A DNA stretch of 64,000 nt from Promethearchaeota archaeon. GTDB taxonomy: Archaea; Asgardarchaeota; Heimdallarchaeia; Hodarchaeales; Hodarchaeaceae. The stretch is from the NCBI GenBank assembly GCA_048938105.1, contig JBHLMN010000001.1, forward strand, positions 416,001 through 480,000, written 5' to 3'. The notes beneath the pieces were generated by a model that was given only the letters and a program-made list of their open reading frames with translations, had not been told where the DNA came from and made no database searches. This document shows, piece after piece, positions 3,641 to 8,642 of this stretch. The position numbers and the translations under genes are program-made. The stretch's first letter is position 1. The number at the start of each line of letters is the position of its first letter.

Positions 3641-4195
3641 ATGAAAGTCTGTTTGCTAGGTGACGGCGCAGTAGGGAAAACTGCTTTACGTGAACGGTAT
3701 TTAGGCAAGCAATTCTCTAGTGGGTACGTGATGACGATAGGCGCAGACTTTGCTGTAAAAAAAACAAGAATAAAAACGGAAGAAGGAGAGAAAGACGTCA
3801 AATTTCAAATTTGGGATCTTGCAGGACAACCACGTTTCAATAGTGTCAGAGAGCTTTATTATAAAGGCTCCCATGGAGGGTTATTAGTATTTGATATTAC
3901 ACGAAGAGATTCTTTTTCTAATTTAAACTCTTGGATAGAAGAATTATTCAAAAATTCGGGCCGAGGAGCGATGCCTATCGCTGTATTAGGAAATAAAGTA
4001 GATTTAAGAAATGAAGCGGATGATTGTGTCACTAGAACTGAAGCCCTAGATTATACTACAAAAATTAAGGAAGATTTTCAATTTAATTGTAACATTCCCT
4101 ATTTAGAGACTTCAGCTAAAACAGGTGAAAATGTGGATGAATCCTTTAGTGAATTAGCTCACAATATCCGAATATTTTTAACGCAATCAAAATAA
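3641..4195 (+). CDS. Rab-like small GTPase
   Basis: G1 GDGAVGKT, G3 WDLAGQ, G4 NKVD, G5 ETSAK; RabF-like IGADF, KFQIW, RFNSV, YYKGS, LVFDIT; possible CTG start at 3632. Confidence 0.93.
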   Translation: MKVCLLGDGAVGKTALRERYLGKQFSSGYVMTIGADFAVKKTRIKTEEGEKDVKFQIWDLAGQPRFNSVRELYYKGSHGGLLVFDITRRDSFSNLNSWIEELFKNSGRGAMPIAVLGNKVDLRNEADDCVTRTEALDYTTKIKEDFQFNCNIPYLETSAKTGENVDESFSELAHNIRIFLTQSK

Positions 4196-4765: not shown

Positions 4766-5303
4766 TAGAGAAATGATGATTAGAAAAAAAATTCAAGTTG
4801 GTGTCATTGGTGATTCACAAATTCGTTCTGACGCCCAATACGAAATCAGCTATGAAATTGGTAGAGAGATTGCACAATCAAACGCAATTCTTATCTGTGG
4901 TGGGCGTGGAGGAGTGATGGAAGCAGCATGTAAAGGAGTATATGATGCAGGCGGAATCTCAGTCGGAATACTACCAACTAATGAGTCTGATCTTGAAGTG
5001 AATAAATATCTCACAATAAAAATTCCAACATTAATGAATCTAGCTCGTAATGCGATCGTTCCCTTAGCCTCCGATGGTGTGATTGCCTGTGGAGGAGGTG
5101 CAGGTACATTATCAGAGATTACATTTGCGTGGATTTATCAAAAGCCAATTGTTTGTATTAGTACGATTTTGGGATGGAGCCAAGAGATTGGAGAACGAGG
5201 ATTTATTGACCATAGAAGCTCTAAAGTTCATATTATGACTGCAAAAACAGGAAAAGAAGCAATCAAAAAAGTTCTTGAAGCTATCTTACGATTTAAACAA
5301 TGA
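4758..5303 (+). CDS. TIGR00725 / LOG-like (SLOG) Rossmann-fold protein
   Basis: ICGGRGGVMEAACKG, GILP, ARN, GGGAGTLSEI. Confidence 0.88.
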   Translation: MDNREMMIRKKIQVGVIGDSQIRSDAQYEISYEIGREIAQSNAILICGGRGGVMEAACKGVYDAGGISVGILPTNESDLEVNKYLTIKIPTLMNLARNAIVPLASDGVIACGGGAGTLSEITFAWIYQKPIVCISTILGWSQEIGERGFIDHRSSKVHIMTAKTGKEAIKKVLEAILRFKQ

Positions 5304-6113
5304 TAAAAGCCCAGATTTATCATTCAGAATTTCAGAAATTCCATCGCATAACGCTTTCAATAATCCATCATTTTTGGGATTGATTAAATCAGAGTAATCA
5401 TTTAGTGTAGAATGCAATTCTAAACTATCTAATCTTTGCACAGCATTAAATATTCTATTAGCAATCTCAAGATAGTTTTCTGTGTTGGAAACAGTCGAAT
5501 TGGCTTTATCTTCAAATGAAAGATATTTTCCGCAATCTTCTATCTCATAAGCATTAATTTCAGCTAGGGTCAAATAGGTTCTCATTTTTGGAGAAAGAAT
5601 TGACATTTCCTGGCTCCAGGAATATAACGTTTCAAAACATGATACAAAATCTTTTTTGTTGCAGAATAATCCTGCATAGCAATAATAAAGGTCTGAGACT
5701 ACATTATTATTATGCTTTCTTGCTTCAAGAATCAAATTATGTAGATATGAAAGGAATTCTGACTCCTGAAACTTCTTATCTATTATTATATAATTACGAA
5801 TAGTTTGAATGCAATTTTCAAGCGAGACTGCTCTTAAATCTACAAATATCCTTGGTATCAACTCAGCATTAACTCGTTCATTTGGGTTTCGACTGATATT
5901 CATTATAAGAGCAAGTGTTAAATCACAGGCCAATTTTGCCTTATTTCCTGAAGCAAAAAGAGGTATAGCCTTAGAAATCACCATTCCAGCATGCTTAGGC
6001 TCACCAGAACGAAATGCCCTTTGAATAGCTCCTTGTAGCATTTGAAGACCATCAAACCAGTGACCTTGGTGGAGTTCAGCCAATCCTTTGCTAAACCAAG
6101 GATCTTTTATCAT
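5286..6113 (-). CDS. Alpha-solenoid protein, putative Get4/TRC35-like
   Basis: ATG at 6113 with AGGAG RBS; N- and C-terminal segments resemble recalled eukaryotic Get4 (see findings). Confidence 0.55.
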   Translation of the reverse strand: MIKDPWFSKGLAELHQGHWFDGLQMLQGAIQRAFRSGEPKHAGMVISKAIPLFASGNKAKLACDLTLALIMNISRNPNERVNAELIPRIFVDLRAVSLENCIQTIRNYIIIDKKFQESEFLSYLHNLILEARKHNNNVVSDLYYCYAGLFCNKKDFVSCFETLYSWSQEMSILSPKMRTYLTLAEINAYEIEDCGKYLSFEDKANSTVSNTENYLEIANRIFNAVQRLDSLELHSTLNDYSDLINPKNDGLLKALCDGISEILNDKSGLLSLFKS

Positions 6114-6371
6114 TTTTATTCTCCTTTTGTTTTGTGTTTTAATGAACTCATTAATTTTTAAAACCTTGGGAAAATTTAAAAAAACAATCGCTTCCAACAA
6201 ATGAACAGAACCTTACTTCTGAGCTTTTGTTGTGTACCACAGATTATAACAATTATAACAACATATTTAACTAGTAAGGACTATGAATTATAACAATTAT
6301 AACGATAAAGATAACTAGCAAGAACTATCAAGCTTTATAAAATCGTAATAGGTACAGAGTGTTGATATACC

Positions 6372-7292
6372 TTGAGTGATTCTGAATATGTTAAAAAATA
6401 TTCTGTAGAAGATGATGGCACTTTAACTCCTACCTCTCTTTCTTCGATGTCAGATCTTGCTGATAACAATGTTTTCATAATTGTTGATGAAGATACGCGT
6501 AAAATATTCATTTGGAAAGGTGAGAAAGCACCTGTAAGGAGAAAATTCATCTCAGCTAAAGCAGCACAACAAATGCGGCAGGAAAAGTATGGAATGGTCT
6601 ATCGTATAGAAAGTCTTGATCCAGGATTGGAAGGAGCTGACTTCCTCGCATTATTTGGTGTAAAACCTGAAGACAGAGAAGTAGCGACACCTGCAGCCTC
6701 AGTAGCAGAGACACCAACCCCCAAACCAGCTCCCACACCAGCTCCAACTCGCGCACCTGCCCGTGCGCCAACCCGTGCACCAACTCCTACATCAGCTCCA
6801 GCCCGTGCAGCAACCCCAACACCAGCTCCAGCCCGTGCACCAACTCACAAACCAACACCAGCTCCAACTCATGCAGCAACCCCCGTACCAGCTCCAATCC
6901 ATGCACCAAAAGTTGTAAAAGAAACCGAAGTAGTAGTTACAGCACCTGTTAGGACTGTCACACCAACCACTCTTGACGAAGTATCCATAAAACTAAAAGA
7001 TCTAGAAATACCTGATAATATGGAACGTGAAATCGTCATTATTGGTAATTTGGTCTTTTCTGTTATTAAAGAGCACCTAGCTCTATTTTCCAAAGATGTC
7101 GTGAAGTTAGAACCAATGGATGACCTTCCCTCAGGAATTTTCCCAGCTGCTGATTATCAAGTTAGACTTTTCATTGAAAATGGAAGGGTAATATTCACTG
7201 AACTTCTTAGAAAAAAAACGCGCTCTGAGAGAGAAGAATTCATTGATGACATGCGAAAATCTCTCCAAGATTTATCGAAGATGGGAATTTAA
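6372..7292 (+). CDS. Gelsolin-domain protein with Pro/Ala/Thr linker and C-terminal domain (1DGelX-like architecture)
   Basis: VFIIVDEDTRKIFIWKGEKAPVRRKFISAKAAQQM is a gelsolin-repeat core; followed by PAPT/RAP repeats and a C-terminal domain of about 100 aa. Confidence 0.8.
   Translation: MSDSEYVKKYSVEDDGTLTPTSLSSMSDLADNNVFIIVDEDTRKIFIWKGEKAPVRRKFISAKAAQQMRQEKYGMVYRIESLDPGLEGADFLALFGVKPEDREVATPAASVAETPTPKPAPTPAPTRAPARAPTRAPTPTSAPARAATPTPAPARAPTHKPTPAPTHAATPVPAPIHAPKVVKETEVVVTAPVRTVTPTTLDEVSIKLKDLEIPDNMEREIVIIGNLVFSVIKEHLALFSKDVVKLEPMDDLPSGIFPAADYQVRLFIENGRVIFTELLRKKTRSEREEFIDDMRKSLQDLSKMGI
6712..6910 (+). repeat. Intragenic low-complexity tandem repeats (PTPAP/RAP)
   Basis: Recurrent acaccagctcca and gcccgtgcac units. 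Confidence 0.85.
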
Positions 7293-7314: not shown

Positions 7315-7851
7315 GTGCCCGACGAATATTTACTCAAAATTTGTGCTATTGGATCAGGTAGTGTTGGAAAAACCTCACTTATCAGGAGATTTGCTGAGGG
7401 AAAGTTCACAACGAACTATTTACCTACACTAGGAGTTGACATTACTACTAAACAGATTCAAGTAGATAACAACAATGTTAAACTAATCCTTGTAGATACA
7501 GCGGGCCAGGAGTTTTTTGGCAAATTACGACCAAGTTATTACCGAGGTGCATCTGCTTGCCTTATCATGTTTGCCTTAGACGAAAAATCATCATTTGAGG
7601 CTATTCCTGACTGGTTAGCAGAATTTCGAAAACACATTCCAGAGGTCTCGGTTCCGATTGCTTTGGCTGGGAATAAGAAAGATCTTGAAGAAAAACGCCA
7701 AGTATCTACTGTTGAAGCTAATACGTTAGCTTCAACCTATAATATGACTTATTATGAAACTTCTGCAAAATTAGGCGGAGAAGAGATTGAGGAAATATTT
7801 GTTGGTTTAACGAGGCGTGTATTACAAAAGAAACAACAAAATAGCATTTAA
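7315..7851 (+). CDS. Rab/Ran-like small GTPase
   Basis: GSGSVGKT, TLGVD, DTAGQEFFGKLR, YYRGA, GNKKD, ETSAK. Confidence 0.92.
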   Translation: MPDEYLLKICAIGSGSVGKTSLIRRFAEGKFTTNYLPTLGVDITTKQIQVDNNNVKLILVDTAGQEFFGKLRPSYYRGASACLIMFALDEKSSFEAIPDWLAEFRKHIPEVSVPIALAGNKKDLEEKRQVSTVEANTLASTYNMTYYETSAKLGGEEIEEIFVGLTRRVLQKKQQNSI

Positions 7852-7889: not shown

Positions 7890-8642
7890 ATGCAGGCAAA
7901 TTCCGACTTTGAAGTCATAAAAAGAGACCATCAAGGGGTTCCAGTAGTCAAAATAGTATTTTGGGGACCAACCTTAGCGGGAAAGACCACTGCACTCACT
8001 ATTACAAAAGTATTGAAGAGTCTAGAAGACCCTGAGAACGTTTATAAATTCTTAAAATTAGAAGATCCCACAGGTCGGACTTTATTTTTCGATCAGGCGA
8101 TTTTTGGCGTAGGGAAAACCGCTGCTGGATTACCAATTCTAAAATACCATCTTTTTACTGTTCCTGGCCAAGAACGACATGCTGGACAACGAAAAGTCGT
8201 TTTACGTGGAGCACATGGTTTGATTGTCGTCATTGACTCCGAGAAATCCCGATGGGAAGAAAATAAGTTCTCTTTACGGGAAATTAACACTCTTGCTGGT
8301 GATAAGCTAGCTAGTGGTACGTTACCTTACCACATTATGTTAAATAAGATGGATCTTCCACGAGAACAACGAATTTCATCACTAGAAGTAGGAAAATTAT
8401 TGAGTGAATCTGGAGTTGCAGCAAGTCTTCGAGATGCAGCTGTTAGAATAGTTGAAGTATCATGTCTCGAAGCAAGGGATGACTTAAAAGCACTTCTCTC
8501 AAAAAGTGACCGAAGTACGATCGTAGATGCTGATGGAAAGTTAAGAAAAGAAGTTCGACCGTTAAGTGTCACCCGTGTCATTAAATCTGTTGAAAGCCTG
8601 ATTCGTGAAATTATCATCCAAATGATGAAACAACAAAGTTAG
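7890..8642 (+). CDS. MglA-like small GTPase
   Basis: KIVFWGPTLAGKTT, RTLFFD, LFTVPGQ, VLRGAHG, NKMD are MglA-family signatures. Confidence 0.85.
   Translation: MQANSDFEVIKRDHQGVPVVKIVFWGPTLAGKTTALTITKVLKSLEDPENVYKFLKLEDPTGRTLFFDQAIFGVGKTAAGLPILKYHLFTVPGQERHAGQRKVVLRGAHGLIVVIDSEKSRWEENKFSLREINTLAGDKLASGTLPYHIMLNKMDLPREQRISSLEVGKLLSESGVAASLRDAAVRIVEVSCLEARDDLKALLSKSDRSTIVDADGKLRKEVRPLSVTRVIKSVESLIREIIIQMMKQQS

Follow-up and report, generated by a model that had tools for sequence, protein, structure and literature searches.

A conserved gene in the Hodarchaeales

We identified a gene encoding a Get4-like protein of 275 amino acids (aa) on the minus strand of a 64,000-nucleotide stretch of DNA (hereafter the window) from a Hodarchaeales genome (contig JBHLMN010000001.1, positions 416,001 to 480,000). 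Get4, known in vertebrates as GET4 or TRC35, is the adaptor that readies the ATPase Get3 for its cargo of tail-anchored membrane proteins. Archaea are known to possess Get3 and Oxa1-type insertases, and the Hodarchaeales are a proposed sister group of eukaryotes. However, to our knowledge the pre-targeting factors Sgt2, Get4, Get5 and Bag6 have been described only from eukaryotes. The protein described here is probably a very distant, fast-evolving archaeal relative of eukaryotic Get4/TRC35, and we consider it reasonably probable that it is a Get4 homologue that works with Get3.

The open reading frame (ORF) is real. It runs from an ATG at 6113-6111 to a stop codon at 5288-5286 and comprises 275 codons; an alternative, longer frame starting with TTG at 6200 is probably not used. 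The protein has 44 close homologues, which are 269-308 aa long, show 42-74% identity and come without exception from metagenome bins assigned to Heimdallarchaeota, Hodarchaeales or 'Promethearchaeota'. All are unannotated or labelled 'hypothetical', and none of the 44 carries a precomputed Pfam domain. An exhaustive phmmer search of 1.84 billion cluster representatives matched 16 clusters, every one of them this same family.

The distribution of the family was determined in 300 sampled Asgard genomes with two profiles: A1, built from the narrow family, and A5, in which the family is combined with its divergent Asgard relatives P0178 and P0179 (51 sequences). P0178 (284 aa) belongs to another Asgard family, has four close kin, and is linked to the window's protein family over its full length with an hhalign probability of 94.5% (94-95% between the A1 family and the P0178 group). 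P0179 (290 aa), found in a sister family within the same order, is tied to the Get4-like family more weakly. With A1, the gene is found as a single copy in all 19 sampled genomes of the window's genus and in none of the sampled genomes of the phylum outside the taxonomic family to which the window belongs. The wider A5 profile again recovers 19 of 19 and adds two genomes, one of the two from the sister family and one from a distant family. Either the Get4-like family is patchy, or it has diverged past detection in other lineages.

The 20 genomes of the genus that were compared all have the same gene order around the locus: a Ras-like GTPase, Trm56, a SLOG protein, the Get4-like gene on the opposite strand, a two-domain gelsolin-like gene and a second Ras-like GTPase. 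The Get4-like protein evolves faster than its neighbours, with 34-74% identity across the genus. The single-copy presence, the fixed gene order and this range of identity therefore indicate a real, conserved and fast-evolving gene. The synteny itself is colinearity at the level of the genus and is uninformative on function.

Sequence similarity to Get4

A first-pass annotation of the window had aligned the N-terminal part of the protein by eye, without gaps, to a 54-aa fragment of human GET4. This fragment is genuine: its identity to vertebrate GET4 proteins with the Pfam domain PF04190 (GET4, formerly DUF410) is 98-100%. Through it we retrieved 24 full-length vertebrate GET4 proteins (alignment A2). 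The register proposed by eye, residues ~14-74 against GET4 ~37-97, is exactly the one chosen by both hhalign and HMMER. The C-terminal echo that had also been pointed out, NAVQ...DYSDLI..DGLLKALCDGISEI against LAV...CEQYQPSL..DPMY..YLDRIGQLFF, reappears as the full-length hhalign pairing. The observation of similarity is confirmed, although the similarity is weak.

The A5 profile was searched with hmmsearch against all 177,635 distinct sequences from the PDB, and its eight best matches are all Get4. They comprise six yeast Get4 constructs (E 0.0019-0.0056) and two human TRC35 sequences (E 0.035 and 0.048); the next matches are designed helical repeats at E 0.086, and no SNAP or Sec17 sequence is matched at E<=10. 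Get4 is therefore the best sequence-profile match of the family in the whole PDB. In a direct profile comparison, hhalign aligned A5 to vertebrate GET4 with a score of 38.0 (E 1.6e-4, probability 50%) over 235 collinear columns, pairing residues 12-266 with GET4 35-291. This alignment extends from a conserved motif on helix 2 to D-G-L-L-K-A-L-C-D-G-I-S-E-I-F, which is paired with D-P-M-Y-N-E-Y-L-D-R-I-G-Q-L-F-F.

Several controls bear on the specificity of this score. Reversed GET4 scores 18.4 against A5 and Get3 scores 17.9. For thirty GET4 alignments shuffled in blocks, the score never exceeds 26.7 and no more than 69 columns are aligned. Two generic Asgard tetratricopeptide repeat (TPR) families score 21.3 and 17.2 against GET4. 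Two subfamilies reach the same N-terminal stretch of GET4 separately, with hhalign scores of 24.8 for A1 and 36.7 for the P0178 group. We also ran A5, with all HMMER filters off, against a database consisting of the 4045 ORFs of the window's own genome and the 24 vertebrate GET4 sequences. The Get4-like gene ranked first and the GET4 sequences took ranks 2-24 and 26 (13-22 bits), outranking 4043 of the 4044 other ORFs; the best of these other ORFs scored 11.3 bits. The vertebrate sequences are not independent of one another, but yeast Get4, recovered from the PDB, provides separate evidence. In the reverse direction, a hidden Markov model (HMM) of vertebrate GET4 placed the Get4-like gene seventh among the 4045 ORFs (E 2.7).

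A feature search of the ESM Atlas, which is based on a protein language model, points the same way. Among the 30 clusters nearest to the window's protein, 21 are GET4 (PF04190); the best of these scores 0.94 and shares 217 of 256 features, and SNAP first appears at rank 14 with a score of 0.87. Taken as a whole, the preferential similarity to bona fide Get4 at the profile level is marginal in absolute terms, yet it is specific, collinear and above chance in the controls.

Predicted structure

AlphaFold2, given the family alignment, predicts an all-helical alpha-solenoid of 16 helices with a predicted local distance difference test score (pLDDT) of 91.4 and a predicted template-modelling score (pTM) of 0.88. 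The first-pass annotation had described a helical protein of 275 aa and quoted strings from both ends of it; these are present as written. The model contains a disordered loop at about residues 190-208 and ends with a low-confidence linker and a short C-terminal helix. Coordinates of the gene and of the regions discussed here are collected in Table 1.

Table 1. Positions of the Get4-like gene and its features in the window.
Feature	Coordinates	Strand	Basis or remark
Gene for Get4-like alpha-solenoid protein, 275 aa	5286..6113	-	Translation; the range includes the stop codon (5286-5288)
Shine-Dalgarno-like AAAGGAG, 7 nucleotides 5' of the ATG	6121..6127	-	Reading of the sequence
N-terminal domain, residues 1-136, 8 helices	5706..6113	-	Region with the closest resemblance to the N-terminal domain by which Get4 binds Get3
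Most conserved motif, residues 17-35, G-H-W-F-D-G-x-Q-M...G-A...R..R	6009..6065	-	Conserved columns
C-terminal domain, residues 137-265, with invariant Y..LAE.N..EI block and D.LLK.L...I..IF helix	5319..5705	-	Conservation; hhalign pairing
Flexible linker and short hydrophobic C-terminal tail K-S-G-L-L-S-L-F	5289..5318	-	pLDDT; conservation

We compared the protein with Get4/TRC35 as represented by PF04190 and by the structures 2WPV, 3LKU, 3LPZ, 4PWX, 6AU8, 7RU9 and 9NS5. The two share their size (~275-330 aa) and their division into N- and C-terminal domains. The number of helices is 14 in fungal Get4 and 16 in human TRC35, with some hinge motion between the two halves; the N-terminal domain binds Get3 and the C-terminal domain binds Get5 or Bag6 (bioRxiv 10.1101/154351). 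The archaeal model likewise is an alpha-solenoid with two domains and a helix count within the range of 14-16.

The W-F-D-G-x-Q...R motif of the N-terminal domain lies on helix 2, in the same register as G-D-Y-Y-E-A-H-Q...R..R of yeast Get4 (27-45) and vertebrate Get4, and both follow the pattern aromatic-aromatic-acid-small-x-Q...R..R. Within it F20, D21, G22, Q24, G28 and R32 are invariant, W19 nearly so, and R35 is mostly conserved. The residues W19, F20, D21, G22, Q24, G28, R32 and R35 pair with yeast Get4 Y29, Y30, E31, A32, Q34, T38, R42 and R45. The C-terminal domain is paired collinearly with that of GET4 by hhalign as far as YLDRIGQLFF, including the helix with the pattern D/x..L..I..[LI]F.

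The protein resembles Get4 also in ending with a flexible linker and a short hydrophobic helix. The family consensus of the tail is S-G-L-F-S-L-F, in which G268 is invariant and L269, L272 and F273 are nearly invariant. Residues 267-275 are modelled with pLDDT <50 and contain a short helix at 269-272. The counterpart in vertebrate GET4 is G-G-L-L-G-N-L-L, and the relative P0179 ends in G-G-L-F-P-L-F. In yeast Get4 an amphipathic C-terminal helix (299-308) forms, together with Get3 helix 8, a lid over the client chamber (PMC12506534). A lid role of the archaeal tail is putative.

A Foldseek search with the full model gave human TRC35 as the top match (6au8_A, E 6.6e-4, template-modelling (TM) score 0.34). 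Sec17 chains follow close behind (E 8.6e-4 and up, TM 0.43-0.49), and then further Get4, HAP40 and PCI proteins. Against 48,161 PDB representatives the four best full-length Z-scores belong to Sec17 (12.7), Get4 (11.2), gamma-SNAP (11.0) and alpha-SNAP (10.6). Over the full-length comparisons taken together, Sec17/alpha-SNAP reaches 12.7-13.2 as against 11.2 for Get4. The N-terminal domain (1-136) was folded separately with a pLDDT of 94. With this domain Get4 provides the two best Foldseek matches (9ns5_B, E 0.010; 7ru9_C, E 0.011) and many further entries among the top 50, and no SNAP occurs in the top 50 of the searches with it (Foldseek, VIA). Among natural proteins the domain has its highest Z-scores with Get4, namely that of yeast, human and Chaetomium (10.2-10.4), and designed helical repeats tie with these. 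The first-pass annotation had proposed structure prediction and Foldseek as a check on its assignment; the outcome speaks for Get4 in the top full-length match and in the N-terminal domain, but Sec17 comes close to a tie and has the higher full-length Z-score.

The SNAP family belongs to the same broad TPR-like class. The model also shows the twisted helical sheet followed by a C-terminal bundle that is typical of SNAP proteins. Thus the predicted structure agrees with Get4 but, as modelled, cannot separate Get4 from the SNAP family. Solenoids with a PCI domain (eIF3a, Rpn/CSN subunits, TREX-2 PCID2/Thp1) differ from the archaeal protein in being larger and in having a terminal winged helix, which it lacks, and they give no sequence signal.

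A candidate Get3 partner and the putative complex

The first-pass annotation had noted that the window contains no Get3/ArsA gene and had proposed a search of the genome for one. The window's contig (C52) indeed has no match, and the genome has matches on contigs C38, C33, C41, C15, C50 and C61. Among them P0184 is a Get3 of the eukaryote-like type: a single-domain protein of 317 aa (ArsA_ATPase, 285 bits) with a methionine-rich insert and a C-x-x-C motif. Thus, as in organisms with Get4, the genome that encodes the Get4-like protein also encodes a CxxC-type Get3. However, Get3 is found in 55 of 60 genomes of the class, and being nearly universal there it makes the co-occurrence of the two genes uninformative.

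The P0184 gene (L001:1477-2430, plus strand, contig C38) stands head-to-head with a gene for a predicted membrane protein of 208 aa (L001:734-1360, minus strand), which has an N-terminal hydrophobic segment and a C-terminal transmembrane segment. A low-complexity ORF rich in proline, threonine and alanine lies just downstream at the same locus. A second Get3-like paralogue is located on contig C33 (L002:1471-2133, plus strand). It is truncated by the end of the contig and is 42% identical to P0184 over residues 5-207. Directly 5' of it is a gene for a 426-aa protein that, judged by its sequence, reads as aRF1/Pelota-like.

We modelled a Get3 dimer with ATP/Mg and the Get4-like protein, supplying alignments for both proteins. 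The complex reached an ipSAE of 0.50 (0.47, 0.50 and 0.50), compared with 0.00 for three controls, with at least 60% agreement of contacts between runs and a partner pLDDT of at least 84. The result was graded as weak support: 58 of 80 solved complexes attain the pass mark, as do 2 of 110 mismatches, and passes at or below 0.60 comprise 7 of the 80 solved complexes and both mismatches. The pass may also partly reflect likeness to solved Get3-Get4 complexes.

Docking of the Get4-like protein on Get3 is plausible in view of this model. By analogy with Get4, the N-terminal domain with its helix-2 motif would dock on the closed, ATP-bound dimer of the CxxC-type Get3, and docking would hold the dimer ready for the transmembrane tail of a tail-anchored protein. 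The C-terminal domain would bind some upstream partner, and the short hydrophobic tail GLFSLF at the C-terminus could contribute to a cover over the client groove of Get3, in the manner of the C-terminal helix of yeast Get4. The presumed roles in Get3 binding, regulation of the ATPase and delivery of tail-anchored proteins are carried over from Get4, with the weak pass of the co-fold as their sole further support.

Neighbouring genes

Divergently transcribed from the Get4-like gene, and directly upstream of a gene for a Ras-like GTPase, is a gene for a 306-aa protein (6372-7292, plus strand) whose position is kept across the genus. Two conserved domains, each ~105 aa long and located at residues 1-113 and 201-306, flank a variable linker. 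The N-terminal one matches the Pfam Gelsolin repeat with 21.8 bits, just above the cut-off of 21 (E 1.7e-4), and the protein resembles a two-domain Asgard gelsolin.

Three genes for small GTPases surround the locus, all on the plus strand (3641-4195, 7315-7851 and 7890-8642). The products of two flanking genes are clear members of the Ras/Roc family (E 6e-45 and 3e-50), and the third is a divergent Arf/Ras-like protein of 250 aa. Such GTPases are typical of the 'eukaryotic signature' content of Asgard genomes. Elsewhere in the window, positions 571-2862 on the minus strand encode a protein of 763 aa, in which an N-terminal TrmB-type winged helix (E 1.2e-5) is the only part recognised; the other ~680 residues fall into no family.

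Assessment of the Get4 assignment

A number of results weigh against the assignment to Get4. The archaeal protein lies below every Pfam GET4 threshold: neither the query nor any of 43 family members matches PF04190 (gathering score 30 bits) at E<=10, and the match that the first-pass annotation had suggested looking for was thus not obtained. The GET4 HMM has no match in the window's own genome and none above the cut-off in the 300 Asgard genomes. When A1 is used in place of A5, hhalign still selects the register 14-74 against 37-97, but at P 0.018, and neither phmmer nor A1 finds a Get4 match in the PDB. The GET4 profile consists of vertebrate sequences only (Neff 1.6), which were themselves retrieved through the human fragment. 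The language-model search with P0178 is ambiguous, giving 0.89 for SNAP/HAP40-like clusters and 0.88 for GET4. The distribution is narrow, covering one genus and one genome in each of two other Asgard families among those sampled, whereas Get4 has been described from eukaryotes alone. In structure-based alignments the identity to Get4 is ~15-19%, and over the full length the superhelical shapes differ (TM 0.33, root-mean-square deviation ~12 Å). We have found no counterpart of Get5, Bag6 or Sgt2, none having been sought successfully, and no candidate for such a partner has been identified.

Collinear matches of P0178 (18.6 bits, E 0.0016) and P0179 (15.5 bits, E 0.015) to Pfam GET4 were first taken as a bridge between the families and then dropped as non-specific. 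They are not counted because an unrelated Asgard TPR protein of 632 aa exceeds both on that model, with 24 bits, and because the kin of P0178 are inconsistent. The 632-aa protein (P0185, L008:931-2829, minus strand, with relatives at L011, L012 and L015-L017) belongs to a group of proteins of about this length from another Asgard family, in which 41 of 68 sampled genomes give a match at E<=1. The top Pfam match of P0185 is GET4, above the TPR models (E 3.3e-5, with residues 343-443 aligned to positions 12-112 of the model); this ~632-aa family is probably a generic TPR protein, with a weak hhalign score against GET4 of 21.3. It shows that Pfam GET4 matches below the threshold are unreliable. 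Two proteins of 278 aa from a further Asgard family that were flagged by the GET4 HMM likewise turned out to be ordinary proteins of the TPR_12 type.

The residues that would form a Get3 interface give a mixed picture. Eleven residues of Saccharomyces cerevisiae Get3 (ScGet3) are listed as required for binding Get1, Get2 or Get4 (PMC11170914). We mapped P0184 onto them through an alignment to Get3 of S. pombe. E253, E304 and E320 are kept and three residues are replaced conservatively (F246 by I, Y250 by W and D308 by E), but Q257, E258, D265, Y298 and E307 are changed. A count that includes K69, which is replaced by R, gives seven of the eleven as retained or conservatively replaced and four as lost. 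According to PMC10248533, which cites Gristick 2014, a salt bridge between D74 of yeast Get4 and K69 of Get3 regulates the ATPase. The aspartate D74 belongs to a yeast G-T-D-L that aligns with A-C-D-L of the archaeal family, and the equivalent residues in the window's own genome are D64 and Get3 R57, a pair that could form the bridge. Among 18 paired genomes, however, position 64 is D, N, E, Q or K and Get3 position 57 is Q, R, K, H or S, with no covariation of charge, and the contact therefore does not appear to be a conserved feature.

Two other explanations deserve consideration. The protein may be a lineage-specific TPR-like scaffold that is unrelated to Get4 and acts with a partner other than Get3, its likeness to Get4 having arisen by convergence among helical-hairpin solenoids of ~280 residues with TPR-like first repeats. 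The N-terminus weakly matches consensus TPR, nine family members touch TPR_IFT121, and structure searches of the ESM Atlas with both the Atlas model and the AlphaFold2 model return only generic TPR proteins (TM 0.4-0.6). Moreover, a score as high as 24 bits against Pfam GET4 is within reach of a generic TPR protein, as seen above, and every individual E-value is marginal. Such convergence nevertheless does not account easily for the ranking of yeast and human Get4 above all TPR proteins of the PDB, numerous as these are, nor for that of vertebrate GET4 above all TPR proteins of the genome itself. The score of 38 against GET4 contrasts with 17-21 for generic Asgard TPR families. The 235-column alignment takes in a C-terminal domain that is not TPR, and the common tail G-L-[LF]-x-x-L-[LF] is foreign to TPR proteins. 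We regard an unrelated scaffold as unlikely, though more credible than a relationship to SNAP.

Under the latter explanation, the protein would be an archaeal relative of the SNAP family (alpha-SNAP, Sec17, gamma-SNAP, HAP40; PF14938), serving as an adaptor that binds the coiled coils of Heimdall SNARE-like proteins and recruits an AAA ATPase resembling Cdc48 or NSF. SNARE-like proteins do exist in the Heimdall group, and the factor that disassembles them is unknown (bioRxiv 10.64898/2026.10.19.760048). The near tie of Sec17 with TRC35 in Foldseek and the proximity of P0178 to SNAP/HAP40-like clusters would fit such a role. At the level of sequence profiles, however, there is no SNAP signal at all: A5 retrieves eight Get4 sequences and no SNAP from the PDB, and none of ~55 family members matches Pfam SNAP at E<=10. 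The N-terminal domain alone draws in Get4 and not SNAP, the Atlas clusters for the window's protein favor GET4 over SNAP, and the Get3 co-fold passes where its controls give zero. A SNAP-type adaptor is thus quite improbable.

A Get4 homologue that has diverged strongly accounts for these observations most economically. We favor homology to Get4 because the signal is specific and collinear, is obtained from two subfamilies and against two distant eukaryotic Get4 proteins, and survives the decoys. The interpretation offered by the first-pass annotation is accordingly supported in part. Its view of an archaeal Get4/TRC35 agrees with the specific profile similarity, but not with Pfam GET4 or with the full-length Z-score, which prefers Sec17. 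Its proposal of a proto-GET pre-targeting factor with a Get3 interface is plausible, with a weak pass of the co-fold and a D74-K69 salt bridge that does not appear to be conserved.

Implications for the GET pathway

Get3 of Heimdallarchaeota has been noted next to SNARE-like tail-anchored proteins (bioRxiv 10.1101/810531). We searched the literature and found no paper that names Get4/TRC35 together with Asgard archaea. Should the protein be SNAP-like instead, it would supply the missing adaptor for disassembly of Heimdall SNARE-like proteins.

With the Get4 homologue as the preferred explanation, the 'eukaryote-only' Get4 step may be older than eukaryotes. A tentative extension, which we hold to be possible but somewhat short of even, is that Asgard archaea of the Hodarchaeales type had a working Get4, a cytosolic adaptor that docked on Get3 and primed it for clients with a tail anchor, the Heimdall SNARE-like proteins among them. 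The pre-targeting half of the GET pathway, regarded as a eukaryotic invention, would then have its origin in the archaea from which eukaryotes descend. The Get4-like family could also stand near the root that the Get4 and SNAP solenoids have in common. If the protein is indeed a Get4 homologue, the GET pre-targeting step would join the eukaryotic signature proteins, beside the SNARE-like tail-anchored proteins and small GTPases of the same genomes. Together with Get3, the protein would constitute a simple two-protein system in which the evolution of regulated hand-off to Get3 could be tested.

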